The notes below the pieces were generated by a model. The model made no database searches, was not told where the DNA came from, and saw only the letters and a list, made by a program, of their open reading frames with translations. The translations under genes and the position numbers were made by a program. From the NCBI GenBank assembly GCA_964016885.1, contig OZ024741.1, positions 54,560,001 through 54,624,000 on the forward strand: a stretch of DNA of 64,000 bases. Direction: 5' to 3'. Positions 1 to 57,411 of this stretch are shown here, piece by piece. The first letter of the stretch is position 1, and each line of letters starts with the position of its first letter. Origin of the DNA: Eledone cirrhosa (taxonomy: Eukaryota).

Positions 1-3000
1 CCTCCTCCTCTTTCCTTCTCCTCCTTCAAGTTTGACCTGTGTGTAATTCTTTTCTCGCGCAGTCTTGACCGAGCTGGTATGGAATTTTTTTTCTCTCTCT
101 CTTTCGTCTGTGACTTCACAAAACTAGCGTTTACCGATTTCGCAGACCAGACCACCTTATCTTCTTCTTCTTCTTCTTCTTCTTCTTCTTCTTCTTCTTC
201 TTCTTCTTCTTCTTCTTCCTCTTCTCTCCTTTCTCTGTGTCTCTCTCTCTCTCTTTTTTCCCCCCGTCAAACTTGGGCGAAATTCTTTCCTTGCTCACAT
301 TTCTACCAGGTTCGATGGTCTTTCGTCTCTTGTTCACGATTTCGCAGAGTTTATATTCATAGAGATCTGGGACTTGTCTATTTCTACTCACTTTCCGTTG
401 CTTAAACCCTTTTTGTTGTTACTCTAGCGTCCCCCTTTATTTACGTGTCCCAACGACTTTTTTTAGCCGTTGTTCGCACCAACCTGAGGCATAAGGCCCT
501 TAAAGCGATGAAATGCCGAGGACGGTTGGAGGGTCACTGATGAAGGACTCACTTTTTCATATGTATCCCATTTGCAACGCCGCAGCTCCATTATTATCAT
601 CATATTTACACATATTACTTTTCCATGCTGCCTGTCTGTCTGTTCCTTGTATCTTTACCACTTCTAGCAGTCTCTCTCCCTCTCTGTTACCCTCTCCTCA
701 ACTTTCACTCACTCATTCTCTGTCACTACCTCTCCTCCTCCTCCTTCAAGTTTGACCTGTGTGTAATTCTTTTCTCGCGCAGTCTTGGCCGAGCTGGTAT
801 GGAATTTTTTTTTCTCTCTCTCTTTCGTCTGTGACTTCACAAAACTTGCGTTTACCGATTTCGCAGACCAGACCACCTTATCTTCTTCTTCTTCTTCTTC
901 TTCTTCTTCTTCTTCTTCTTCTTCTTCTTCTTCTTCCTCTTCTCTCCTTTCTCTGTGTCTCTCTCTCTCTCTTTTTTCCCCCCGTCAAACTTGGGCGAAA
1001 TTCTTTCCTTGCTCACATTTCTACCAGGTTCGATGGTCTTTCGTCTCTTGTTCACGATTTCACAGAGTTTATATTCATAGAGATCTGGGAGTTGTCTATT
1101 TCTACTCACTTTCCGTTGCTTAAACCCTTTTTGTTGTTACTCTAGCGTCCCCCTTTATTTACGTGTCCCAACGATTTTTTTTAGCCGTTGTTCGCACCAA
1201 CCTGAGGCATATGGCCCTTAAAGCGATGAAATGCCGAGGACGGTTGGAGGGTCACTGATGAAGGACTCACTTTTTCATATGTATCCCATTTGCAACGCCG
1301 CAGCTCCATTATTATCATCATATTTACACATATTAATTTTCCATGCTGCCTGTCTGTCTGTTCCTTGTATCTTTACCACTTCTAGCAGTCTCTCTCCCTC
1401 TCTGTTACCCTCTCCTCAACTTTCACTCACTCATTCTCTGTCACTACCTCTCCTCCTCCTCTTTCCTCCTCCTCCTTCAAGTTTGACCTGTGTGTAATTC
1501 TTTTCTCGCGCAGCCTTGACCGAGCTGGTATGGAATTTTTTTTTCTCTCTCTCTTTCGTCTGTGACTTCACAAAACTTGCGTTTACCGATTTCGCAGACC
1601 AGACCACCTTATCTTCTTCTTCTTCTTCTTCTTCTTCTTCTTCTTCTTCTTCTTCTTCTTCCTCTTCTCTCCTTTCTCTGTGTCTCTCTCTCTCTCTTTT
1701 TTCCCCCCGTCAAACTTGGGCGAAATTCTTTCCTTGCTCACATTTCTACCAGGTTCGATGGTCTTTCGTCTCTTGTTCACGATTTCACAGAGTTTATATT
1801 CATAGAGATCTGGGACTTGTCTATTTCTACTCACTTTCCGTTGCTTAAACCCTTTTTGTTGTTACTCTAGCGTCCCCCTTTATTTACGTGTCCCAACGAC
1901 TTTTTTTAGCCGTTGTTCGCACCAACCTGAGGCATATGGCCCTTAAAGCGATGAAATGCCGAGGACGGTTGGAGGGTCACTGATGAAGGACTCACTTTTT
2001 CATATGTATCCCATTTGCAACGCCGCAGCTCCATTATTATCATCATATTTACACATATTACTTTTCCATGCTGCCTGTCTGTCTGTTCCTTGTATCTTTA
2101 CCACTTCTAGCAGTCTCTCTCCCTCTCTGTTACCCTCTCCTCAACTTTCACTCACTCATTCTCTGTCACTACCTCTCCTCCTCCTCTTTCCTCCTCCTCC
2201 TTCAAGTTTGACCTGTGTGTAATTCTTTTCTCGCGCAGCCTTGACCGAGCTGGTATGGAATTTTTTTTTCTCTCTCTCTTTCGTCTGTGACTTCACAAAA
2301 CTTGCGTTTACCGATTTCGCAGACCAGACCACCTTATCTTCTTCTTCTTCTTCTTCTTCTTCTTCTTCTTCTTCTTCTTTCCTTTCTCTGTGTCTATCTC
2401 TCTCTCTTTTTCCCCCCGTCAAACTTGGGCGAAATTCTTTCCTTGCTCACATTTCTACCAGGTTCGATGGTCTTTCGTCTCTTGTTCACGATTTCACAGA
2501 GTTTATATTCATAGAGATCTGGGACTTGTCTATTTCTACTCACTTTCCGTTGCTTAAACCCTTTTTGTTGTTACTCTAGCGTCCCCCTTTATTTACGTGT
2601 CCCAACGACTTTTTTTAGCCGTTGTTCGCACCAACCTGAGGCATATGGCCCTTAAAGCGATGAAATGCCGAAGACGGTTGGAGGGTCACTGATGAAGGAC
2701 TCACTTTTTCATATGTATCCCATTTGCAACGCCGCAGCTCCATTATTATCATCATATTTACACATATTACTTTTCCATGCTGCCTGTCTGTCTGTTCCTT
2801 GTATCTTTACCACTTCTAGCAGTCTCTCTCCCTCTCTGTTACCCTCTCCTCAACTTTCACTCACTCATTCTCTGTCACTACCTCTCCTCCTCCTCCTTCA
2901 AGTTTGACCTGTGTGTAATTCTTTTCTCGCGCAGTCTTGGCCGAGCTGGTATGGAATTTTTTTTTCTCTCTCTCTTTCGTCTGTGACTTCACAAAACTTG

Positions 3001-6000
3001 CGTTTACCGATTTCGCAGACCAGACCACCTTATCTTCTTCTTCTTCTTCTTCTTCTTCTTCTTCTTCTTCTTCTTCTTCTTCTTCTTCTTCCTCTTCTCT
3101 CCTTTCTCTGTGTCTCTCTCTCTCTCTTTTTTCCCCCCGTCAAACTTGGGCGAAATTCTTTCCTTGCTCACATTTCTACCAGGTTCGATGGTCTTTCGTC
3201 TCTTGTTCACGATTTCACAGAGTTTATATTCATAGAGATCTGGGAGTTGTCTATTTCTACTCACTTTCCGTTGCTTAAACCCTTTTTGTTGTTACTCTAG
3301 CGTCCCCCTTTATTTACGTGTCCCAACGACTTTTTTTAGCCGTTGTTCGCACCAACCTGAGGCATATGGCCCTTAAATCGATGAAATGCCGAGGACGGTT
3401 GGAGGGTCACTGATGAAGGACTCACTTTTTCATATGTATCCCATTTGCAACGCCGCAGCTCCATTATTATCATCATATTTACACATATTAATTTTCCATG
3501 CTGCCTGTCTGTCTGTTCCTTGTATCTTTACCACTTCTAGCAGTCTCTCTCCCTCTCTGTTACCCTCTCCTCAACTTTCACTCACTCATTCTCTGTCACT
3601 ACCTCTCCTCCTCCTCTTTCCTCCTCCTCCTTCAAGTTTGACCTGTGTGTAATTCTTTTCTCGCGCAGCCTTGACCGAGCTGGTATGGAATTTTTTTTTC
3701 TCTCTCTCTTTCGTCTGTGACTTCACAAAACTTGCGTTTACCGATTTCGCAGACCAGACCACCTTATCTTCTTCTTCTTCTTCTTCTTCTTCTTCTTCTT
3801 CTTCTTCTTCTTCTTCTTCTTCTCTCCTTTCTCTGTGTCTCTCTCTCTCTCTTTTTTCCCCCCGTCAAACTTGGGCGAAATTCTTTCCTTGCTCACATTT
3901 CTACCAGGTTCGATGGTCTTTCGTCTCTTGTTCACGATTTCACAGAGTTTATATTCATAGAGATCTGGGACTTGTCTATTTCTACTCACTTTCCGTTGCT
4001 TAAACCCTTTTTGTTGTTACTCTAGCGTCCCCCTTTATTTACGTGTCCCAACGACTTTTTTTAGCCGTTGTTCGCACCAACCTGAGGCATATGGCCCTTA
4101 AAGCGATGAAATGCCGAGGACGGTAGGAGGATCACTGATGAAGGACTCACTTTTTCATATGTATCCCATTTGCAACGCCGCAGCTCCATTATAATCATCA
4201 TATTTACACATATTACTTTTCCATGCTGCCTGTCTGTCTGTTCCTTGTATCTTTACCACTTCTAGCAGTCTCTCTCCCTCTCTGTTACCCTCTCCTCAAC
4301 TTTCACTCACTCATTCTCTGTCACTACCTCTCCTCCTCCTCTTTCCTTCTCCTCCTTCAAGTTTGACCTGTGTGTAATTCTTTTCTCGCGCAGTCTTGAC
4401 CGAGCTGGTATGGAATTTTTTTTCTCTCTCTCTTTCGTCTGTGACTTCACAAAACTTGCGTTTACCGATTTCGCAGACCAGACCACCTTATCTTCTTCTT
4501 CTTCTTCTTCTTCTTCTTCTTCTTCTTCTTCTTCTTCTTCTTCTTCCTCTTCTCTCCTTTCTCTGTGTCTCTCTCTCTCTCTTTTTTCCCCCGTCAAACT
4601 TGGGCGAAATTCTTTCCTTGCTCACATTTCTACCAGGTTCGATGGTCTTTCGTCTCTTGTTCACGATTTCACAGAGTTTATATTCATAGAGATCTGGGAC
4701 TTGTCTATTTCTACTCACTTTCCGTTGCTTAAACCCTTTTTGTTGTTACTCTAGCGTCCCCCTTTATTTACGTGTCCCAACGACTTTTTTTAGCCGTTGT
4801 TCGCACCAACCTGAGGCATATGGCCCTTAAAGCGATGAAATGCCGAGGACGGTTGGAGGGTCACTGATGAAAGACTCACTTTTTCATATGTATCCCATTT
4901 GCAACGCCGCAGCTGCATTATTATCATCATATTTACACATATTACTTTTCCATGCTGCCTGTCTGTCTGTTCCTTGTAACTTTACCACTTCTAGCAGTCT
5001 CTCTCCCTCTCTGTTACCCTCTCCTCAACTTTCACTCACTCATTCTCTGTCACTACCTCTCCTCCTCCTCTTTCCTCCTCCTCCTTCAAGTTTGACCTGT
5101 GTGTAATTCTTTTCTCGCGCAGTCTTGACCGAGCTGGTATGGAATTTTATTTTCTCTCTCTCTTTCGTCTGTGACTTCACAAAACTTGCGTTTAACGATT
5201 TCGCAGACCAGACCACCTTATCTTCTTCTTCTTCTTCTTCTTCTTCTTCTTCTTCTTCTTCTTCTTCTTCTTCTTCTCTCCTTTCTCTGTGTCTCTCTCT
5301 CTCTCTTTTTTCCCCCCGTCAAACTTGGGCGAAATTCTTTCCTTGCTCACATTTCTACCAGGTTCGATGGTCTTTCGTCTCTTGTTCACGATTTCACAGA
5401 GTTTATATTCATAGAGATCTGGGACTTGTCTATTTCTACTCACTTTCCGTTGCTTAAACCTTTTTTGTTGTTACTCTAGCGTCCCCCTTTATTTACGTGT
5501 CCCAACGACTTTTTTTAGCCGTTGTTCGTACCAACCTGAGGCATATGGCCCTTAAAGCGATGAAATGCCGAGGACGGTTGGAGGGTCACTGATGAAGGAC
5601 TCACTTTTTCATATGTATCCCATTTGCAACGCCGCAGCTCCATTATTATCATCATATTTACACATATTACTTTTCCATGCTGCCTGTCTGTCTGTTCCTT
5701 GTATCTTTACCACTTCTAGCAGTCTCTCTCCCTCTCTGTTACCCCCTCCTCAACTTTCACTCACTCATTCTCTGTCACTACCTCTCCTCCTCCTCTTTCC
5801 TCCTCTTTCCTCCTCCTCCTTCAAGTTTGACCTGTGTGTAATTCTTTTCTCGCGCAGTCTTGACCGAGCTGGTATGGAATTTTTTTCTCTCTCTCTTTCG
5901 TCTGTGACTTCACAAAACTTGCGTTTACCGATTTCGCTGACCAGACCACCTTATCTTCTTCTTCTTCTTCTTCTTCTTCTTCTTCTTCCTCTTCTCTCCT

Positions 6001-7794
6001 TTCTCTGTGTCTCTCTCTCTCTCTCTTTTTTCCCCCCGTCAAACTTGGGCGAAATTCTTTCCTTGCTCACATTTCTACCAGGTTCGATGGTCTTTCGTCT
6101 CTTGTTCACGATTTCACAGAGTTTATATTCATAGAGATCTGGGACTTGTCTATTTCTACTCACTTTCCGTTGCTTAAACCCTTTTTGTTGTTACTCTAGC
6201 GTCCCCCTTTATTTACGTGTCCCAACGACTTTTTTTAGCCGTTGTTCGCACCAACCTGAGGCATATGGCCCTTAAAGCGATGAAATGCCGAGGACGGTTG
6301 GAGGGTCACTGATGAAGGACTCACTTTTTCATATGTATCCCATTTGCAACGCCGCAGCTCCATTATTATCATCATATTTACACATATTACTTTTCCATGC
6401 TGCCTGTCTCTCTGTTCCTTGTAACTTTACCACTTCTAGCAGTCTCTCTCCCTCTCTGTTACCCTCTCCTCAACTTTCAGTCACTCATTCTCTGTCACGA
6501 CCTCTCCTCCTCCTTCAAGTTTGACCTGTGTGTAATTCTTTTCTCGCGCAGTCTTGACCGAGCTGGTATGGAATTTTTTTTTCTCTCTCTCTTTCGTCTG
6601 TGACTTCACAAAACTTGCGTTTACCGATTTCGCAGACCAGACCACCTTATCTTCTTCTTCTTCTTCTTCTTCTTCTTCTTCTTCTTCTTCTTCTTCTTCT
6701 TCCTCTTCTCTCCTTTCTCTGTGTCTCTCTCTCTCTCTTTTTTCCCCCCGTCAAACTTGGGCGAAATTCTTTCCTTGCTCACATTTCTACCAGCTTCGAT
6801 GGTCTTTCGTCTCTTGTTCACGATTTCACAGAGTTTATATTCATAGAGATCTGGGACTTGTCTATTTCTACTCACTTTCCGTTGCTTAAACCCTTTTTGT
6901 TGTTACTCTAGCGTCCCCCTTTATTTACGTGTCCCAGCGACTTTTTTTAGCCGTTGTTCGCACCAACCTGAGGCATATGGCCCTTAAATCGATGAAATGC
7001 CGAGGACGGTTGGAGGGTCACTGATGAAGGACTCACTTTTTCATATGTATCCCATTTGCAACGCCGCAGCTCCATTATTATCATCATATTTACACATATT
7101 ACTTTTCCATGCTGCCTGTCTGTCTGTTCCTTGTATCTTTACCACTTCTAGCAGTCTCTCTCCCTCTCTGTTACCCTCTCCTCAACTTTCACTCACTCAT
7201 TCTCTGTCACTACCTCTCCTCCTCCTCTTTCCTCCTCCTCCTTCAAGTTTGACCTGTGTGTAATTCTTTTCTCGCGCAATCTTGACCGAGCTGGTATGGA
7301 ATTTTTTTTCTCTCTCTCTTTCGTCTGTGACTTCACAAAACTTGCATTTACCGATTTCGCAGACCAGACCTCCTTATCTTCTTCTTCTTCTTCTTCTTCT
7401 TCTTCTTCTTCTTCTTCTTCTTCTTCTTCTTCTTCTTCTTCTTCTTCTTCCTCCTCCTCTTCTCTCCTTTCTCTGTGTCTCTCTCTCTCTCTCTTTTTTC
7501 CCCCCGTCAAACTTGGGCGAAATTCTTTCCTTGCTCACATTTCTACCAGGTTCGATGGTCTTTCGTCTCTTGTTCACGATTTCACAGAGTTTATATTCAT
7601 AGAGATCTGGGACTTGTCTATTTCTACTCACTTTCCGTTGCTTAAACCCTTTTTGTTGTTACTCTAGCGTCCCCCTTTATTTACGTGTCCCAACGACTTT
7701 TTTTAGCCGTTGTTCGCACCAACCTGAGGCATATGGCCCTTAAAGCGATGAAATGCCGAGGAAGGTTGGAGGCTCATTGATGAAGGACTCACTT

Positions 7795-7800
<6 letters not shown>
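1..7800 (+). repeat. Tandem array of ~720-bp units (11 visible; continues off the left edge), each with a variable (TTC)n tract and a hammerhead-like core
   Basis: Near-identical units. The CTGATGA marker recurs at 537, 1255, 1980, 2689, 3410, 4135, 4864, 5589, 6309, 7021 and 7777 (TTGATGA there); periods 709-756 bp, varying mainly in TTC/CCT tracts. The array ends at (AT)n. Confidence 0.97.
1192..1262 (+). ncRNA. Non-circularly permuted hammerhead ribozyme with K-turn (representative copy; one per array unit)
   Basis: GGCAU-A (1206-1211) pairs with GAA-AUGCC (1228-1235) as helix III. UGGCCCU (1212-1218) pairs with AGGGUCA (1248-1254) as helix I, directly followed by CUGAUGA (1255-1261). CCAAC-CU-GA / GAG-GA-CG-GUUGG forms a K-turn. 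Confidence 0.75.
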
Positions 7801-8412
<612 letters not shown>

Positions 8413-8502
8413 GTAGAAGTTCTATTTAAATTGTTGGGATACAACAAGCAAATATTTTTATAACTGATATAAAGCACTCAACAAATTATTGGAGTAAAAA
8501 TA

Positions 8503-27245: not shown

Positions 27246-30200
27246 ATGATTTCTTTATTAACCACAAGGGTTTACATAAAGTAGACATTAAGGACAGTGC
27301 AGGACAATACAGGACGGTACAAATGGGCATTTCTGCGTGTAAAAAATAAAAACAGAGGATGTAACAAAAAATAACAATGAAAAATTCCCCAATAGGGGAG
27401 ACTTCGGAGGGACAATTGTGGAGAAAGCCCAGTAAAAGGCCACAATGACCCTGACCACCAAGGCAAGTGCCCTCTCCCAGTTTTCCACCTTTAATTTACA
27501 GATATATACTCAGAGTAGGCACATTCACTCGGGCCATTCTTGCTTCTCTCACCCATCTTTCAACAAAATGCTGGGAAGAGAGCACTTCCCTCTCTACTCT
27601 GATTGACTTTTCAAATGAAATTTGAAAAAGTCAATCAGAGCATCACCGAAGAGGTAAGTGCTCGTCTTCAGCCCTTTCAAACGTGTCCACCATACTATCT
27701 CTTTCGCCATGGCCACCAGACAGATAAAAACTGCCTGCCCTTCCCGGCTAAAGGAGGAGGGCGGGGAAATCCTCACGATGGACTCAGATGATAGCCGGAT
27801 CCGTCCTAAACGCGACAGCAGGTGTTCGACATAAACCCACAAGTCAGAAATTTTCGGACACTGGACGAGTGCGTGCAGGACGGTTTCGTCGCCCTGCTCG
27901 CATCTCGGACATGCCCGGCTGACGGCACCTCCATGCCTGTAGAGTTTATCCCGAACTGGCAAGGCTCTTCGGTAGCACTGCCAGGCCAGGGATTTCTGGA
28001 AGTTGTCCATAGGCCCCGGCCCGAAAGTTCTTGGCTAGTTAATTTTCGTCGACGCCTAGAGTTTCCCCAAGTACATCGTCGCTCTTCCCCTCCACTAATC
28101 TTCTATAGAACGCCAAGGTGGAGTTTCCACCGATCACATTTCCCGATTGGTCGAGGGCTGTGAGCGCCTGAAGACATTCCAGTCTCCAAGCGCTCCCTCT
28201 CGGTCTTCGCTTGACCCAGGACTGCAGCTCCGTCAAGGAGACGAGCTGGGGAAAGATGCGTCTAGCAAACGACGACCACACCTGAGCACCGTTGAGGAAG
28301 AGGTGGAGATGTCGTAGCCTGAGCGCGTGTTGCGTATCATCAGCCACCGCATTCCCAGCCCTCCACGTAGCGGGTGTTGACAGCAGATGGACCCCCTGAC
28401 CATCGGAGCGCGTCCGTTCCACAAAAAGCGAAAGAGCAAACGCTCCAGCGCAGTCAGGCGGGGCTTAAGACAAGGTACGACGGTCAGGTGGTAGTAGATG
28501 ACGGACGCGATGTACGCGTTAGCCACCTACGCTCGACCTTTCATGGATAGCTTCTTCTCCGCCCATTTCTGGGTAAGAGAAGCCACGCTGCTCGTCACCT
28601 CGTTCCAGTTTTTGTCCGTCTTTAGGTCCGGACCGAACCAGACCTCTAGCAATTTAACCGGTCCGTCCGTCCAGCGCCCGACGACGGTGTTGGACGGCAT
28701 GGACCTGCCTCTCCAGGTGCCGAGCTGTAGGCCCACTGACTTTTCCTGGTTGATCATTGCTCCTGTCACCGCTTCGTATTCTCTTAATGTAGTGCCGATC
28801 GCCTCGATGTGTTTGGTGTTCGACACCACTACGGTGACATCGTCCACATATGCTGACACGGATCTTCCGCATCCTAGTTCGCGCGGGACGCCCCTCAACG
28901 TCTCCAGTTTGTGCAGTAATGGCTCGAGAGTCAATACCTACAAGAGGGACGAGAGGGGACATCCTTGGCGGACCGAGCGCATGATGGTGAACGGTTCCGA
29001 AAGATGACCGTTCACTCTCACCACAGAGCAGATGTCGCTGTGCATGGCAGCGATCCAGCCTCTGAAGATGGGCCCAAAGCCAGCCGCCCTCAGGACTGCC
29101 GCTAGGTAACGATGGTGGACCCTATCGAAAGCTTTCGACTGATCTAAATTGATCAAGGACCCACCCGTGCCAGGTTCCCTAGCTACCCTCTCTACGATGT
29201 ATCGCATGAGGTGGAGGTTGTCGTGGATGGATCTGTCGGGAATGGCGCATGTCTGCGCGACTCCCACCAGACCACCAACGACAAGCGCCAACCTCTTTGC
29301 TAGCACCTTGGCCAAAATCTTGAACTCTGTGTTTAGCAGAGTTATGGGCCTGAAATTATTTATGTTATCCCCCTTGTTCGGATCTTTTCTCAGCAGTGCC
29401 ACCGCTCCTCGGCGCACAGAGCTGGGAATTCTCCCGTTCTGTTGCCAGTTGCAGTAGACGTCCGCCAAGAGGCCTCCGAACAAGTCTGGCATCTGTACGT
29501 AAAGTTCATAGGGCAGACCATCCAAACCAGGCGATTTACCCCTTGTGCAGCCAGTCATTGCCTCCCGTACTTCAGCGGCTCTTATAGGCTTTTCACAACA
29601 CTCCGCCTCAGTGGCCGAGAGCTGCGGCAGTCCGTCGAGGTAGACACTAAAGTCCATCCCTCGACCCGGCCCACTGCTGCCCCCGAACAGCTGAGCGAAG
29701 TGTCGCTGAAAAGCTTCACACATTTGCCCGGGATCGAGTAGCATGCGCCCGTCGTGGTCCACCAAAGACCGGATCGTGGCTTTGTTGCCACGACGCGCCT
29801 CCGCCACTCGGGCCCATTGAACAGCTTTCATCCCCTCGGGTTCGAGAGCACGCACCCTAGCTCTGACAACGCAGCCTTCGTGCTTTGCATTGAAGAATTG
29901 GTCAAGGGCCAATTTCGCCGCAAGCACGTCGGTCGCGATGCCTTTGCTAAGCGCCCGTCTAATTTTCTAACTAGTTCTCCCTCTGCTCTATGTTCCTCTA
30001 TTGCTAAAGCCTCACTAAACCTAATGGACTCTATTCTAATCGCTCTTTTCAGAGCAAACCACCACTTGTTGACGATGGCCCCCGTCAACGCACGCTTAAC
30101 TAGTTCGCTAATCTGGTCGCTGTAGGCCTTGCGCGCTGGTAAGAAAGCGTTTAACTTCCAGTAGCCGGGTCCTCGTCTATGAAGCCTATCTAAGTCAAGC

Positions 30201-33235: not shown

Positions 33236-36200
33236 TAAGTGTTTAAATGTCGAACCTAAACAGTTCGAATAACGGTGAAGAGGAGGCTGGAACGTCATGT
33301 GACAGACTCTCACCCAGCAAGTGCCCCCTGGCCCAGCAGCAGGGACCTGGCTGTCATCCAAATACTGCTGGTGTTGGAGGAAGTAGAAGAAGGAAAGGGA
33401 CAAGAACCAACTGGACGAAAGTATTTAATAGAACTGTTATGGAATGTTACCTGAAGAGTAACCCCAAGGAAAAAGGCTATAGGAAACGGATGCATAACAT
33501 CTGGAACGAGATTGGTCTATTTAAATTAGATGAACAAAAGTTGGCCGGCAGGCTCGGGTAATAAGTATTAATGAATGGATAAGCGAGTTGGAACTGGAGG
33601 AACTGAGCAGATAGATTAGGTTAGAAATAGAGAGTGGAGTATGCCAGACAAACGAGCCAGTGGGAAATGAAAGTGAAGAGGTTGAGAGAATGGAGGAAGC
33701 ATCCAAAGCAGACATTGATCTGAATGCTGAAATAAGTAACATCTGAAAGATACGGCCATTGAGGAAATGAATGCTGATGGGCTAGGACAAGATTTGGTTG
33801 ATATCCTAAACTTAGTGGTAGATGAAATGAACAATGATAGTGGGAAACCTATGAACCTAAGATTTGTAGACAGGAAAAGTTAAAAGAAACAACAGCTAAG
33901 GTAAACAAAGTCATCCCATACCTTGAGAGGAGGAACCTTCACCAATGCAACAATATCCTCAAAGAAACAGCAAATGCGTCGAGCAAATTACTTGGCATAA
34001 AAACGAGAGGAAACAACAAACAAGAAAGATCAGAACCTTGGTGGAAGAAACGACTGAATGGTCAAATCAAGGAAATGAGAAATGACATTGGAAAGCTTAA
34101 GTCCCTACTGAATGGGACACTACAAAACATAGACACTAAAAATAGACTGGAAATAAAGTACAAAACTAGGATCAAAAAGCTAAATATCATCATAGAGGAA
34201 CTGAAGCAACGCATTGTAGCAAAGAGTGCAAAGATTAGGCGGTATGAGAGCAGAGTCAGTCAGTATAGACAGAACCGCATGTTTGACAACAACCAGAAGA
34301 TGTTGTTTGGACAGCTTGAAGGGAAAGAAAGAGGCAACGACTTGATCCCTGAGGCGGACAAACTAAGACATTCTGGAGAGGAATATGGGAGCAGGATGTT
34401 AAACATAATGACCAGGCAGTGTGGATTGAGACAGTACAAAAGGAGATTAGTGAACAAGCACGCCAAGAAACTGATTTGAGTATCACAGTTGAAACTCTTA
34501 AAGGGCAGGCCAAAAAACTAACCAACTGGAAATCACCAGGTCCAGATGGTGTGCAGGGGTATTGGATCAAAAATATAACATCCCTCCACCCGAAACTGAC
34601 AACCATCTTCAATGATTGCTTGATGTCGGGTGAGGTACCAGAGTGGTTGACAAAAGATATCACAGTTCTGGTAATGAAAGACCGAATCAAGGGTAATGAT
34701 GTTACCAACTATAGACCTATCACATGTCCGTCCGTAATGTGGAAACTGTTAACAAGCATTGTGCCTGAGGAAATCTACCATCACCTCCACATAAACAACT
34801 TGTTACCGGACGGACAGAAAGGATGCCGAAAGAAGTCCCATAGTACAAAAGACCAGTTACTTATTGATAAGATGGTAATGAGGAATTGCAAGAGGAGACA
34901 CACTGGTCTTGCCATGGGATGGATAGATTACAAAAGGCATTCGACATGGTACCTCATTCTTGGATAACCAAAAGCATAGAGATCTTCAAGGTGGCAGATA
35001 ACATCAGACAGTTGTTGAGCAAAAGTATGAAGTCCTAGGAAACAGAGTTAACATCGTATGGAGAATCCTTGGAAGGCGTGAAGATCAAGAGAGGTATCTT
35101 CCAGGGAGATAGTTTGTCCCCTCTGTTGTATACTGTGAAAAGTGAGAGCAGGATACAAGTTGGGAAAAGGAGAGCTTACCATCAACCACCTCCTCTTCAT
35201 GGGCGATCTTAAACTCTTTGGGAAGAGTGAGAAGGAGTTGGATGTACTTGTTGAGACTGTACGTATTTTCAGCAATAATATATGTATGCAATTTGGTATT
35301 AGTAAGTGTGGAGTCCTAGTGAGGAAGAGGGGTAAATTGAGCAGAAGCAACAGAATCCAGGTACCAACAAGTGAGATGATAAAGGAAATTGACACTGAAG
35401 AGGGATACAAATATTTAGGTGTTCTTGAGGCAGATGACATCAAGAACAAAAAATTAAGGATTGATAACATCTGAGTACATAAGTAGAGTAAGAAGCGTAA
35501 TAAAATCACATCTAAAAAGTAGGAATGTCATAAGTGCAGTGAATTCCCGAGCTGTGTCTATTATTAGGTACAGTGCGGGAATTCTGAAATGGAATGTTGT
35601 TGAACAAAAAGAAATGGATAGGAAGAATACGAAACTATTGACTATCTACATGTTTCACAAGAGGAGTGATGTCGATAGACTCTACTTAAAGAGATCTGAA
35701 GGTGGAAGAGGTCTTATCAGAATACAGGACTGTGTTTAGATGGAGAAAAACAACCTGCACAAATATGTGACAGACAGTGGGGAGCCAATGCTCAAAATTG
35801 TACTGAAGGAGAAGACAATAGGCCAGGGGATGTCCAAGGAGGAAATAACAACAAGGAGGAAGAGCAACGTTCATGAAAAATCCCTTCATAGTACCTTCTT
35901 TAAGAAAACGGAATTTAGAGATCCACAGATATGGAACTGGTTAAAAAGAGGAGACCTTAAAAAGGCTACAGAAGGAATGTTAATGGCTGCGCAAGAGCAA
36001 GCCCTCAGAACGAAGTGGGTGAAACACCATATTTACAAGGAGGAGGCTAGCCCACTGTGTAGGATCTGTGGAGAGAGGAGACTGTGGCTCACATTATATG
36101 CGAGTGTAAACACCTAGCCCAGACTCACTATAAAGGCTGGAGACATGATGGGATGGGCAGGGTGATCCACTGGCACCTATGCAAAGTAAACAATTTACCA

Positions 36201-43449: not shown

Positions 43450-44330
43450 TTGGAACAGAATAGAAAAGATTAGGAATAAGGCAAATAAAATCAACTCATG
43501 ATATGATAGCAATAAATACCAGAGTGTAATGTTCGTCAATACAACCCCTAGAGCCGAAGTAGCTTACAGATTTAGAAGAGCCCTAGACAAGCTCGAGTTA
43601 AATATTACGCAAGTTGAAAGACCAGGTATTCCCATAAAAACACTACTTAGTAAAACGCATCCATTCCAAAGAACTCCCTACACTGATAGGAAATGCATAG
43701 TCTGAAAGCTAAGCCAGCAAACTAACTGTAAAACTAGGAACGTAGTATATAGCATATGATGTACTGAGGGACAGTGTAGGAATAAGAACAGAACATACAT
43801 AGGTGAAACAGCCCGTAGCATAGGAGAAAGGATAAGTAAACACTGGCGAGAACTTCAGGATGGAAAAAACTCATCAGTACTCCACCAACATACCAAAATA
43901 GAACATAGGTGCACACTGGAGAGCATAGAGATAAAAATTATATCCACACACAAAAAAGACGCAATGCTCCAACAAATTACAGAGGCGACAAACATAAACG
44001 AACTCCAATAGAAAACATGAGTGAAATAGCACCATCACAACTAGTAATTAAGGATAAAATGAAGAAATACAGACACACAGAAAAACCACATTACAAAAGA
44101 AATCAGATACGCACAGATAGAACAAACAACCAGCTAGTGACAAGTAAATAAACACATAAATAAATAAAAACACATACACTCACCTGGATGTAACGCGTAC
44201 GCAAACTAAGCACACAACACAGAGCACATAAAAAAACAAGATGGTGTAGAACAGAACAGAGGAGAAACACAAAATAAAAACCGAGTCACTGAGGAGGTCA
44301 CAGAATGTGTAACGAAAGAGCTTTGACAAT
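43450..44330 (+). mobile_element. Degenerate PLE GIY-YIG fragment with downstream decayed HHR (44285-44327)
   Basis: NVVYSI*C...TYIGETARS; gtca-CTGAGGA...GAAA-gagc-TT-tgac. Confidence 0.7.
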
Positions 44331-52800: not shown

Positions 52801-55364
52801 TCAATGGGCCCGAGTGGCGGAGGCGCGTCGTGGCAACAAAGTCACAATCCGGTCTTTGGTGGACCACGACGGGTGCATGCTACTCGATCCCGGGCAAATG
52901 TGTGAAGCTTTTCAGCGACACTTCGCACAGCTGTTCGTGGCCAGCGGCGGGCCAGATCGAGGGATGGACTTTAGTGTCTACCTCGACGAACTTCCGCGGC
53001 TCTCGGCCACTGAGGCGAAGAGTTGCGAAAAGCCGATAATAGCCGCTGAAATACGGGAGGCAATGATTGGCTGCACAAGGGGTAAATCGCCTGGTTTGGA
53101 TGGTCTGCCCTATGAACTTTACGTACAGATGCCAGACTTGTTCGGAGGCCTCTTGGCGGACGTCTACTGCAACTGGAAACAGAACGGAAGAATTCCCAGC
53201 TCTGTGAGCCGAGGAGCTGAGAAAGGATCCGAACAAGGGGGATAACATAGATAATTTCAGGCCCATAACTCTACTAAACACAGAGTTCAAGATTTTGGCC
53301 AAGTTGCTAGCAAAGAGGTTGGCGCTTGTCGTTGGTGGTCTGGTGGGAGAGGCGCAGACATGCGCCATTCCCGACAGATCCATCCACGACAACCTCCACC
53401 TCATGCGATACATCGTAGAGAGGGTTGCTAGGGAACCTGGCACGGGTGGGTCCTTGATCAATTTAGATCAGTCGTAAGCTTTCGATAGGGTCGACCATCG
53501 TTACCTAGCTGCAGTCCTGAGGGCGGCTGGCTTTGGGCCCGTCTTCAGAGGCTGGATCGCTGCCATGCACAGCGACATCTGCTCTGTGGTGAGAGTGAAC
53601 GGTCACCTTTCGGAACCGTTCAACATCATGAGCTCGGTCCGCCAAGGATGTCCCATCTCGTCCCTCTTGTACGTATTGACTCTCGAGCCATTACTGTACA
53701 AACTGGAGACGTTGAGGGGGATCCAGCGCGATCTAGGATGCGGAAGTTCCGTGTCAGCATATGCGGACGATGTCACCGTAGTGGTATCGAACGCCAAACA
53801 CATCGAGGCGATCGGCACTACACTAATAGAATACGAAGCGGTGACAGGAGCAATTATCAACCAGGAAAATTCAGTGGGCCTGCAGCTCGGCACGAGAGGA
53901 AGGTCCATGCCGTCCAACAGCGTTGTCGGGCGCTGGACGGACGGACCGGTTAAATTGCTAGGGGTCTGGTTCGGTCCGGACCTCGAGACGGACAAAAACT
54001 GGGACGAGGTGACGAGCAGCGTGGCTTCACTCACCCAGAAATGGGCGGAGAGGAAGCTATCCCTGAAAGGTCGAGCGGAGGTGGCTAACGCGTACATCGC
54101 GTCCGTCATCTACTACCGCCTGACCGTCGTACCTTGCACTAAGCCACGCCTGACTGCGCTGGAGCGTTTGCTCTTACGCTTTTTGTGGAACGGACGCGCT
54201 CCGATGGTCAGGAGGTCCATCTGCTGTCAACACCCGCTACGTGGAGGGCTGGGCATGCCGTGGCTGATGATGCGCAGACACGCGTTCAGGCTACGACATC
54301 TCCACCTCTTCCTCGCCGGTGATCAGGTGTGGTCGCCGTTTGCTAGACGCGTCTTTCCCCAGCTCGTCTCTTGACGGAGCTGCAGTCCTGGGTCAAGCGA
54401 AGACCGAGAGGGAGCGCCTGGAGACTGGAATGTCTTTAGGCGTTCACAGCCCTCGACCAATCGGGAAATGTGATCGGTGGAAACTCCACCATGGCGTTCT
54501 ATAGAGGATTAGTGGAGGGGAAGAGCGACGACGCACTTGGAGAAACTCTAGGCGTCGACGAAAATCAACTAGCCAATCTCTTCGGAAGAACTTTCGGGAC
54601 GGGGCCTATTGACAACTTCCAGAAATCCCGTTCCTGGCAGTGCTACCGAGGAGCTTTGCCAGTTCGGGATAAACTCTACAGGCATGGAGGTGCCGTCAGC
54701 CGGGCATGTCCGAGATGCGTAAAGGGCGACGAAACCGTCCTGCACGCACTCGTCCAGTGTCCGAGCATTGCTGACTTGCGGATTTATGTCGAACACTTGC
54801 TGTCACGTGTAGGACGGATCCAGCTATCAGCTGAGTCCATCGTGAGGATTGCCCCGCCCTCTTCCTTTAGCCGGGAATGGCCGGCAGTTTTTATCTCTCT
54901 GGTGGCCATGGCGAAAGTGATAGTATGGTGGACACGTTTGAAAGGGCTGAAGACGAGCACTTACCTCTTCGGTGATGCCCTGATTAACTTTTTCAAATTT
55001 CATTTGAAAAGGAAAATCAGGGTAGAGAGAGAAGTGCTCTCTTCCCAGCATTTTGTTGAAAGATCGGTGAGAGAAGCAAGTATAGCCCGAGTGAATACTC
55101 TGAGTATGTGTCTGTAAATTAAAGGTGGAAAACTGGGAGAGGGCACTTGCCCTGGTGGTCAGGGTCACTGTGGCTTTTTAATGGGCTTTCTCCACGAATG
55201 TCCCTCGGAGATCTCCACCCTATTGGGGAATTTTTTCATTGTTCTATTATTACATACTGTTTCTTCTTTTTTACACGCAGAAATGCCCATTTGTACCGTC
55301 CTGTATTGTCCTGTACTGTCCTTAATGTCTACTTTATGTAAACCCTTGTGGTTAATAAAGAAAA

Positions 55365-55365
<1 letters not shown>
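49880..55365 (+). mobile_element. Tx1-clade LINE, same family as 27246-33083, slightly 5'-truncated and disrupted
   Basis: ORF1 and APE-RT-CCHC motifs (YADD); the 3' end runs into (TTA)n. Confidence 0.95.
50341..51696 (+). pseudogene. Tx1 ORF1 (Zn knuckle, Pro/Thr-rich linker, basic NLS-like patch); open C-terminal 3/4
   Basis: 451-aa open frame with CVVCGEGTHLRAFC; N-terminus frameshifted. Confidence 0.85.
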
Positions 55366-55412
<47 letters not shown>

Positions 55413-55414
<2 letters not shown>

Positions 55415-57387
55415 TTTGAGTCTCAGTCATCGATGTTAGGTAACTGGAAAGTTTGTTGAAATTAATATCAAGCCACTACCTGCAGCCTCAGATATTCAGG
55501 ACGTATCGGAGGGTTCTTGCTGTTCCCTGCAAGCATGCCTTTTGAAGCGTTTCAAAAACCGTGGCGGGGCCAATTTTCTTTAACCATCCCTGTAAACTTT
55601 TTGAGATAGTCCCCAGTGCGCCTATGACAATCGGGACCACTTTGACTTCATGGCAGTTCCAAATCCTTTTTACCTCCCACTTTAAGTCCTGGTATCGGTT
55701 AATTTTCTCCCTCTCCTTCTCTTGCACTCTCGTGTCGAATGGGCAGGCCACATCCACAATCACACGATATTTTTTCTTTGTCCAAAACCACCAGGTCAGG
55801 TCTAGTGTGTTCCAGTTTCTTGTCTGTCTGTATCCTAAAATCCCACAGCACCTTCACCTGATCGTTTTCTATCACCGACTCTGGCTTATGCTCATACCAC
55901 TTCTCAGAATGTGGTAAATTGTTTACTTTGCATAGGTGCCATTGGATTACCCTGCCCATCACATCATGTCTCCAGCCCTTATAGTGAGTCTGGGCTAGGT
56001 GTTTACACTCGGATACAATGTGAGCCACAGTCTCCTCTCTCTCTCCACAGATCCTGCACAGTGGGCTAGCCTCCTCCTTGTAAATATGGTGTTTCAACCA
56101 CTTCGCTTTGAGGGCCTGCTCTTGCGCAGCCATTAACATTCCTTCTGTAGCTTTTTTAAGGTCTCCTCTTTTCAACCAGTTCCATGTCTGTGGATCTCAG
56201 TTTTCTCAAAGAAGGTACTATGAGGGGATTTTTCATGAAGGCTGCTCTTTCTCCTTGTTGTTATTTCCTCCTTGGACATCTCCTGGTCTATTGTCCTCTC
56301 TTACAGTACAGTTCTGAGCATTGGCTCCTTACTATCAGTCACGTATTTGTGTAGGTTGTTTTTCTCCATCTGAACACAGTCCTCTATGCTGATAAGACCT
56401 CTTCCACCCTCAGATCTCCTTAAGTAGAGTCTATCGACATCACTCCTCTTGTGGAACATGTTGTAGATAGTCAATAGCTTCCTAGTCTTCCTATCCATTT
56501 TTTTTTTTTTTCAGCAACATTCCATCTCAGAATTCCCGCACTGTACCTAATAATAGACACAGCTCGGGAATTTACTGCACTTATGGCATTCCTACTGTTC
56601 AGATGTGACTTTAATACGCTCCTTACTCTCCGAATGTATTCAGATCTTATGAATTCCTTCATTTTTTTGTTCTTGATGTCATCAGAACACCCAAATACTT
56701 GTATCCTTCTTCAGTGTCAATTTCCTTTATCATCTCACCTGTTGGTACCTGGATTCCGTTGCTTCTGCTCAATTTACCCCTCTTCATCACAAGGACTCCA
56801 CACTTACTAATATAAAATTGCATACATATATCATTGCTGAAAATACGGACAGTGTCAACAAGCACATCCAACTCCTTCTCACTCTTCCCGAAGAGCTTAA
56901 GATCGTCCATGAAGAGGAGGTGATTGATGGTAAGCTCTCCCTTTCCCAACTTGTATCCTGCTCTCACTTTTCGCAGTATAATGGTCAGGGGCATCAGGGC
57001 AAGGACAAACAACAGAGGGGACAGACTATCTCCCTGGAAGATACCTCTCTTGATCTTCACGCCTCCCAAGGATTCTCCAGCTGATGTTAACTCTGTTTTC
57101 CAGGACTTCATACTTTTGCCCAACAACTGTCTGATGTTATCTGCCACCTTGAAGATCTCTATGCTTTTGATGATCCAAGAATGAGGCACCATATCAAATG
57201 CCTTTTTGTAGTCTATCCATCCCATGGCAAGACCAGTGTGTCTCCTCTTGCAATTCCTCATTACCATCTTATCAATAAGTAACTGGTCCTTTGTACCACG
57301 GGACTTCTTTCAGCATCCTTTCTGTTCGTCCGGTAACAAGTTGTTTGTGTGGAGGTGATGGTAGATTTCCTCAGACATAATGCTTGT
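55413..57387 (-). mobile_element. 5'-truncated Dong-like R4 LINE embedded in (TAA)n
   Basis: [35 protein letters not shown]; same family as 33236. Confidence 0.95.
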
Positions 57388-57411
57388 TATTATTATTATT
57401 ATTATTATTAA

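Follow-up and report, generated by a model that had tools for sequence, protein, structure and literature searches.

The window analysed here, a stretch of 64,000 nucleotides (nt) of the Eledone cirrhosa genome (contig OZ024741.1, positions 54,560,001 to 54,624,000), opens with a head-to-tail array of repeat units that carry the sequence blocks of a hammerhead ribozyme in a scrambled order. The locus raises the question of whether such a unit could cleave itself and of what kind of element it is a part. An earlier note, made from the letters of the window, had described the repeat as a satellite with a hammerhead assisted by a kink-turn (K-turn) in every unit. The reading preferred here is that the motif is probably the self-cleaving hammerhead of a non-autonomous Penelope-like retroelement, cutting in cis 3′ of nucleotide A17, and it is supported by a core in register, by covariation between families and by the anatomy of the insertions.

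Hammerhead blocks and predicted fold

The three hammerhead blocks are present in 11 of 11 window units, running from 5′ to 3′ as cleavage site (block S), GAAA (block G), and CUGAUGA (block C). The pieces that the earlier note had read in unit 2, namely GGCAU-A-UGGCCCU (1206–1218), GAAA-UGCC (1228–1235), and AGGGUCA-CUGAUGA (1248–1261), were all found, and the predicted cut of this unit lies 3′ of A17 (1211). This block order is not new: S-G-C already exists as type SGC (HRIMA-1 and variants), described and validated in vitro by Eckert et al. (2023; PMC10085705). The core (C3 U4 G5 A6 N7 G8 A9, G12 A13 A14, the pair A15.1–U16.1, and H17) is complete in 10 of the 11 units, unit 11 being the only one with a core change (C3U). 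The parts of unit 2 are predicted as follows, with the alignment values explained in the next section.

1165..1266, forward strand: whole predicted type-SGC hammerhead of unit 2 (P0 to P0), ~102 nt
1165..1168, forward strand: 5′ strand of P0, pairing with 1263–1266 and holding the open ends of the motif; 83% of cells paired, double changes in 1/4 pairs
1169..1190, forward strand: P1 hairpin, 1169–1173 with 1186–1190, extendable; 94% paired, 3/8 pairs covarying, pairing probability 0.87
1192..1195, forward strand: 5′ strand of P2 (the displaced 5′ strand of stem II), pairing with 1223–1226; 98% paired, 2/4 pairs covarying
1197..1205, forward strand: 5′ strand of the strut (NC) helix (1197–1202) and non-bulged K-turn strand (U3n 1203, G2n 1204, A1n 1205); 5/6 strut pairs covarying
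1206..1218, forward strand: block S, with helix III strand 1206–1210 (U16.1 at 1210), A17 at 1211, and helix I strand 1212–1218
1219..1235, forward strand: 4-nt linker, 3′ strand of P2 (1223–1226), U11.1 (1227), and block G with G12 A13 A14 (1228–1230) and helix III strand 1231–1235
1236..1247, forward strand: K-turn bulge 1236–1238, G1b and A2b (1239–1240), C3b (1241), and 3′ strand of the strut (1242–1247)
1248..1266, forward strand: block C, with helix I strand 1248–1254, CUGAUGA 1255–1261, A10.1 (1262), and 3′ strand of P0 (1263–1266)

A four-way junction of P0, P1, P2, and the pair 10.1–11.1 stands in place of stem II. The CUGAnGA strand and the GAAA strand do not form a continuous stem II duplex: only 10.1–11.1 joins them and the 5′ flank supplies the rest as P2, while block C is interrupted in that the strand 3′ of 10.1 pairs in P0 and not with block G. 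The earlier note had given helix II one pair and a possible extension by pairing of the flank UCGC with GCGA; the flank pairing stood, but the junction also takes in P0 and P1, whose 5′ strands the transcript it proposed (1180–1275) would exclude. The RNA would fold in cis into a normal hammerhead core, in which helix I and stem II (10.1–11.1 stacked on P2) would be tied at their far ends by the 4-nt linker, the strut helix would run back to the far end of helix III with the K-turn as a sharp hinge on both strands, and P0 and P1 would branch off stem II as a four-way junction carrying the free ends. Because both strands pass through this hinge, the S–G, G–C, and C–S links would all be closed and the chain would open inside stem II, at P0. 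As judged from the sequence, this opening point is outside the six published permutations, which assume an unbroken block C, and the motif would work like type SGC yet constitute a further permutation by its broken block C.

The hinge has the sequence of a K-turn, with a 3-nt bulge, the pairs G1b–A1n and A2b–G2n, and Watson–Crick C and NC stems that both covary. An unbiased look at the non-bulged strand by eye (100 of 336 copies listed, not selected for that strand) gave A at 1n in 94 of 100 rows and G, U, or A at 2n in 71, 25, and 4 rows, respectively. The 336 copies lack G1b, by look mostly through scattered decay, though one G1b-less subfamily recurs (5 of the 100 listed rows); both may speak against G1b being universal across families. 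The 3b–3n pair varies, being C-U in the window family and U-U or A-G elsewhere, and older families in the genome have U at 2n. The extra nucleotide in front of P2 is U, C, UA, or missing, and the idea of a base triple there was rejected for that reason.

Rfam gave no match at the gathering score and only two irrelevant matches with E>2, a miss attributable to the pseudoknotted block order and in line with the expectation of the earlier note that standard descriptors would pass over the motif. A descriptor specific to the order (core plus helices I and III of 5 base pairs (bp)) matched eight times in the array, with 0 matches in window positions 8501–64000 on both strands and 0 in 300 shuffled 64-kb windows. 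By eye, the other GAAA and UH blocks of the unit gave no standard type I hammerhead. Under a strict test of 33 pairs plus the core, 5 of the 11 window units are intact, as are 20 of 28 array copies (those of the 30 found by anchor). The remaining window units are listed below; the variants that the earlier note had listed proved right (only bulge position L3 changed in unit 4, U-G kept in unit 8, P2 broken in units 5 and 10, and damage in units 1, 6, and 11), and one broken P0 pair in unit 7 had gone unnoticed.

447..548, forward strand: unit 1 ribozyme, first pair of helix I broken
1890..1991, forward strand: unit 3 ribozyme, intact, same as the array majority
2599..2700, forward strand: unit 4 ribozyme, intact, bulge change only
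3320..3421, forward strand: unit 5 ribozyme, P2 pair broken
4045..4146, forward strand: unit 6 ribozyme, strut and helix I pairs broken
4774..4875, forward strand: unit 7 ribozyme, P0 pair broken
5499..5600, forward strand: unit 8 ribozyme, intact, U-G in P2
6219..6320, forward strand: unit 9 ribozyme, intact
6931..7032, forward strand: unit 10 ribozyme, P2 pair broken
7687..7788, forward strand: unit 11 ribozyme, C3 and helix I damaged

Covariation among families of the genome

A motif BLAST over the 3.0-Gb genome returned 1,584 first-look candidates, which is not a copy number, and a general pattern (block order plus the K-turn GA pairs) had 6,007 genome matches vs 27 for its reversed control. 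Patterns written to exclude the window family found other families, with units of 470–586 bp. From 133 distinct copies clustered into 53 groups, 24 with intact 5′ parts were aligned as family representatives; truncated and chimeric copies were left out, and older families with a long P1 were aligned separately and not counted. With a 35-pair structure, 91.9% of the cells in the 24 representatives are paired, vs 80.1% after shuffling and 33–44% with slid partners, and double-sided changes occur in 20 of the 35 pairs (0 of 500 shuffles as high). Covarying pairs are found in helix I (6/7), the strut (5/6), helix III (2/5), P2 (2/4), P1 (3/8), and P0 (1/4), so that both stems beside the K-turn show compensatory changes, and the pair 10.1–11.1 occurs as U-A, A-U, U-G, and C-G. 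The motif aligns almost gap-free between families, and N17 is A or C in 23 of 24 rows and U in one (the pattern barred G). The custom descriptor search and covariation test that the earlier note had suggested for cephalopod genomes have thus been run on that of Eledone, and the non-circular order, the register of helices I and III, the K-turn, and the UCGC/GCGA flank pairing all survive on families other than that of the window.

Several points weigh against a self-cleaving hammerhead of a Penelope-like element. The core and the K-turn GA positions were imposed by the search patterns and lend no independent support, four helix I positions were likewise imposed for 11 of the 24 rows, and kinship among the sequences inflates the shuffle test. 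The pair 10.1–11.1 is standard in only 16 of 24 rows and unpaired in eight, although in older families the 5′ flank could, by eye, take over the pairing of 11.1. Nucleotide identity between families is 63–74% in the motif and thus not above that of the aligned rest (67–72%). In a nested-folding model, which is blind to pseudoknots, the probabilities of P0, P2, and helix I are close to zero and the strut disappears when the whole circular monomer is folded, and nested folding of 74- and 91-nt segments, uninformative for a pseudoknotted motif, gives z ∼0. One RNA run (share 0.04, contigs) matched only in two short pieces outside the motif, and a study on vertebrates reports no in vitro cleavage for 8 of 9 retrozyme dimers that had been predicted. 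Finally, two degenerate patterns for the reverse transcriptase (RT) motif of Naiads, the Penelope-like elements discussed below, had 0 matches in the genome.

The absence of an Rfam match and the position of the RNA run pieces outside the motif would also suit a chance or decayed look-alike in an ordinary satellite, which is nevertheless very improbable given 0 matches in 300 shuffles, compensatory changes in all seven helices, and the same architecture, by eye, in published elements of other phyla. Three sequencing runs not labelled as RNA hold the family and variants of it, as contigs in which ends are not visible. The motif pattern found 0 stretches in viral contigs, and 11 matches in metagenome contigs were dismissed as chance, both helices being formed in 0 of 11. 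A lone and more divergent SGC copy lies on the minus strand at L029:401–508. Its helix I differs in sequence yet pairs perfectly over 7 bp, and its unit is non-coding and unassigned to any other family. Another repeat family (L099:4620–4680, L100:1590–1650, and L101:4804–4860) carries GAAA, a GA-bearing 3-nt bulge, and CUGAnGA in G-C order, and no matching cleavage-site block was found near these copies.

Insertion anatomy and mobilisation

Ten distinct dispersed insertions have 3′ ends mainly at two sites, ∼70 and ∼120 nt past the predicted cut, and variable 5′ ends, with an inverted 5′ piece in 3 of the 10 and most junctions in (AT)n. Across all families, (AT)n lies within 260 nt in 96 of 146 distinct copies, 89 of them having it 60–149 nt past the cut; the remaining 50 probably come from inside arrays. 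Penelope-like elements, and Naiads above all, are described as marked by insertion in tandem and in inverted form, by a tail in some cases, and by (TA)n targets (Craig, 2021; PMC8557442), and the insertions here show tandem and inverted arrangement, an optional tail of 30–50 nt, a microsatellite target, and 5′ truncation. In the Poseidon element, the tail has been explained by internal initiation of reverse transcription (Frangieh, 2024), which the insertion anatomy here also fits. The unit encodes no RT or nuclease, its sole open reading frame (ORF) of at least 50 codons being of low complexity and unconserved. Given these insertion marks and the lack of both enzymes, the repeat is a non-autonomous Penelope-like retroelement family (a retrozyme), a passenger and not the plain satellite of the earlier note. 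The low-complexity frame has 88 codons at window 1231–1497, with equivalents in other units, and its ATG is at A15.1, 20 nt after the predicted cut; it was set aside as coding sequence because the ATG is absent from most other families.

1..7798, forward strand: 3′ part of the head-to-tail array of the non-autonomous Penelope-like element, 11 ribozyme-bearing units of 709–756 bp
7789..8412, forward strand: 3′ end of the element, ∼65 nt beyond the final cut site and continuing into the targeted (AT)n microsatellite (7799–8412); dispersed copies use the same end

The earlier note had placed the array at 474..7790, which holds for units inside the window, but the whole array is larger, with 30 ribozyme copies over ∼21 kb and a start 13.5 kb upstream of the window. 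Its units (∼720 bp) differ by 1.0% on average. A purely single rolling-circle origin of the 30-mer was rejected because 19 substitutions are common to non-adjacent units, vs 42 private ones; the array was accordingly expanded at least in part after insertion, and later recombination had a share in it. Elsewhere in the window, pairs of similar sequence on opposite strands with repeated CUGAnGA contexts (27600–29100, 33400–35400, and 53500–57400) suggest two dispersed repeat families in inverted orientation, and a search for tRNA genes in the window found none.

Sequence, covariation, and insertion anatomy are directly observed, and cleavage, fold, circles, and the mobilising enzyme are inferred from them as follows. 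Read-through transcripts of tandem copies would be cut 3′ of A17 in successive units to give unit-length RNAs, and these, ligated circles, or uncut multimers would be reverse-transcribed by a Penelope-like protein with RT and GIY-YIG domains. This protein would nick (AT)n and start 60–150 nt downstream of the cut, producing 5′-truncated, inverted, and tandem insertions. Since the insertions run through the cut site from a downstream start, the template would be uncut or re-ligated RNA; type I retrozyme monomers are reported to be circularised by RtcB.

The start sites just 3′ of the motif could also be those of a fold that is real but no longer catalytic in these non-autonomous families, kept as an RNA recognised for copying by the Penelope-like protein or by a host protein that binds K-turns. 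Bivalve Naiads, whose 3′ ends lack the core by eye (0/11), are described as highly amplified all the same (Craig, 2021; PMC8557442), which also favours such a role. Binding alone, however, needs no catalytic register of the GAAA, CUGAnGA, and UH blocks, and the core spacing is kept across families that diverge by 26–37% in the motif; together with the near-restriction of N17 to A or C noted above, this makes a purely recognised RNA distinctly unlikely, and a cleaving hammerhead is preferred.

As to the source of the enzyme, a search of the genome with PF00078 (RT) gave at least 150 matches among those listed. No Naiad ORF was found in 10-kb stretches around five older copies, the GIY-YIG fragments near copies are C-terminal-type remnants, and the genome holds one truncated remnant similar to Naiad_Ovul. 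The 0 matches to Naiad RT motifs agree with the description of cephalopod Naiads as long-dead remnants (Craig, 2021; PMC8557442), and the Penelope-like unit most likely descended from the 3′ end of a Naiad. At L032:3342–4840, ∼14–17 kb upstream of the window, lies a Neptune-like element with a C-terminal GIY-YIG, the last 9 nt of which before (AT)n are similar to the array end; no CUGAnGA was seen in its 3′ untranslated region. It is a candidate mobiliser. L153:3730–4690 holds an older SGC-type copy in inverted orientation, joined by a 14-nt fold-back to a canonical Penelope-like element that has a type I hammerhead. The junction is with the nuclease-coding 3′ end of that element and may have arisen by a template switch within one insertion event. 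The likeness of the Neptune-like end and this fold-back fusion suggest that a canonical Penelope-like protein may now copy the family. A decayed 3′ end of a canonical Penelope-like element also lies in the window at 43600–44328. It consists of a GIY-YIG-like remnant and, after it, a type I hammerhead of minimal form (CUGAGGA at 44289 and GAAA at 44314), and by eye it belongs to the same family as L153:4045–4690.

Naiad 3′ ends and comparison with known systems

Naiads have been reported to be without canonical hammerheads, eight of them being flagged 'HHR_half_core', including one Octopus and one squid element (Craig, 2021; PMC8557442). The supplement of that paper gives 54 Naiad consensus sequences, and for 48 of them the 3′ end, in most cases its final ∼300 nt, or a core passage was read by eye. 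In 16 of the 48, from five phyla, the complete core was recognised together with helices I and III in a non-circular arrangement, nine being in SGC and seven in CSG order. The SGC Naiads comprise three near-identical Acropora elements, Morbakka-2, Pomphorhynchus, Eulimnadia, two Octopus elements, and Euprymna, and in most of them stem II is supplied by the 5′ flank beside P0 and P1. The CSG Naiads (three from Nippostrongylus, Haemonchus, Heligmosomoides, Ascaris, and one from Pristionchus) have a plain stem II and an enclosing helix, like those of Eckert et al. The 3′ ends of Naiad_Obim and Naiad_Ovul share P2, the K-turn, the SGC order, and the 8-nt P1 loop with the Eledone families, a likeness that points to an octopod host, whereas the Eledone unit differs from published Naiads in lacking RT and nuclease and in being young (1% between array units). 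The generality of the motif is limited by the bivalve ends, none of whose 11 ends has a core, by a Beroe Naiad with a helix I of only 2 bp, and by one Darwinula Naiad that reads as ordinary type III order. The bivalve 3′ ends share other conserved G/C-rich motifs and may hold a different self-cleaving or recognition RNA. On the sequences compared, there is good reason to think that across animal phyla much of the Naiad clade has a non-circular hammerhead as its standard ribozyme, and that this has been overlooked.

In several published Naiads (EuTe and Plae), the helix III extension has, by eye, just a 1–3 nt bulge where the K-turn would be, which on geometric grounds would be too straight for a monomer to fold back. 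This bears on the main rival, in which neighbouring units swap domains and activity is confined to the dimer: the flank and block C of one unit would pair with blocks S and G of another, so that cutting would need multimers and the monomer or circle would be protected. Animal and Penelope hammerheads are reported often to need dimers, and the loss of the strut in the nested model of the circular monomer points the same way. In Eledone, however, the K-turn supplies the bend, and the helix lengths are those of SGC-3, which cleaves from a single copy, so that dimer-only activity is unlikely here while fitting the Naiads with a small-bulge hinge.

For the cis-acting hammerhead preferred in Eledone, the variable 3b–3n pair, which distinguishes folding in ions alone from protein-dependent folding, is the basis of the idea that a host protein gates cleavage. 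It is conceivable, if rather doubtful, that Naiad-wide non-circular hammerheads were joined in the Eledone lineage by a captured box C/D-like K-turn, clamped by an L7Ae-family protein (15.5K/Snu13) that gates self-cleavage; if true, this would be a natural hammerhead switched on by a host ribonucleoprotein protein in thousands of genomic copies. Apart from any such gating, the predicted Eledone motif takes non-circular permutations, so far a curiosity of metatranscriptomes, into animal genomes, where they are present in high copy number and have a biological home, and a direct and cheap test is offered for the published puzzle that Naiads thrive without hammerheads. Censuses of retrozymes and ribozymes based on type I–III descriptors would miss the whole class.

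Type SGC is described from metatranscriptomes only and CSG from two metagenome contigs, no known genome being among the sources (Eckert et al., 2023; PMC10085705). In the literature searched (subscription papers and preprint supplements lying outside it), nothing was found on non-circular hammerheads of animal genomes or on natural hammerheads that contain a K-turn, and a 2026 review, so far as consulted, has Eckert et al. as the sole source for alternative permutations besides one fungal study. The scrambled S-G-C order thus appears to be unreported from animal genomes, and the four-way-junction stem II is new here. As rebuilt by eye from its oligonucleotides, SGC-3 has 5 bp in helix III, 6 in helix I, and 5 in helix II; its interaction helix of 7 bp comes directly after helix III (0 nt between) and 2 nt after stem II. 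SGC-3 cleaves at 0.13/min, and a single copy is enough for cleavage during transcription (Eckert et al., 2023; PMC10085705). The Eledone motif resembles type SGC in block order, in similar helix lengths, in a short linker (4 nt here, typically 3 in type SGC) from helix I to stem II, and, by eye, in a strut (1197–1202/1242–1247) of nearly the SGC-3 length that ties stems I and II and is joined directly to the end of helix III. It differs in that the strut of Eckert et al. is joined to helix III on one strand and here on both, through the K-turn, and in that blocks C and G simply pair with each other in their stem II, whereas stem II is here opened after 10.1 into a four-way junction. Their authors found the direct join of strut and helix III hard to square with the crystal structure, and their main text has 'kink' and 'k-turn' 0 times and their supplement 'kink' 0 times (PMC10085705); a strut helix with a sharp hinge, here the K-turn, suggests a structural answer to the geometry problem they left open.

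The two arms of a duplex bent by a K-turn enclose an angle of 50 degrees, the 3b–3n pair decides between folding in ions alone and a need for protein, and U at 2n is a known natural variant, as in Thermus Kt-23 (Huang and Lilley, 2016; PMC5061560). The Eledone hinge resembles the simple K-turns of that account (Kt-7, box C/D, and U4) in that two duplexes are joined through a 3-nt bulge and, after it, a G-A and an A-G pair, and the older families share U at 2n with Thermus Kt-23. Unlike known K-turns, it sits inside the predicted self-cleaving ribozyme of a mobile element, and its L3 is not fixed as U, being G in the window family.

Animal retrozymes without long terminal repeats (non-LTR) provide the closing comparison. 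Like these, the Eledone family consists of non-coding tandem repeats with one hammerhead per unit, and they too have been proposed to be non-autonomous Penelope-like derivatives (Cervera and de la Pena, 2020; PMC7229834; Li et al., 2026; 10.64898/2026.07.22.740005). Its unit is ∼720 bp vs 150–450 bp in those retrozymes as described, and it does not have their type I hammerhead in each tandem unit, its order being S-G-C: whereas animal non-LTR retrozymes have been defined and searched for by type I hammerheads only, the hammerhead predicted here is non-circularly permuted.

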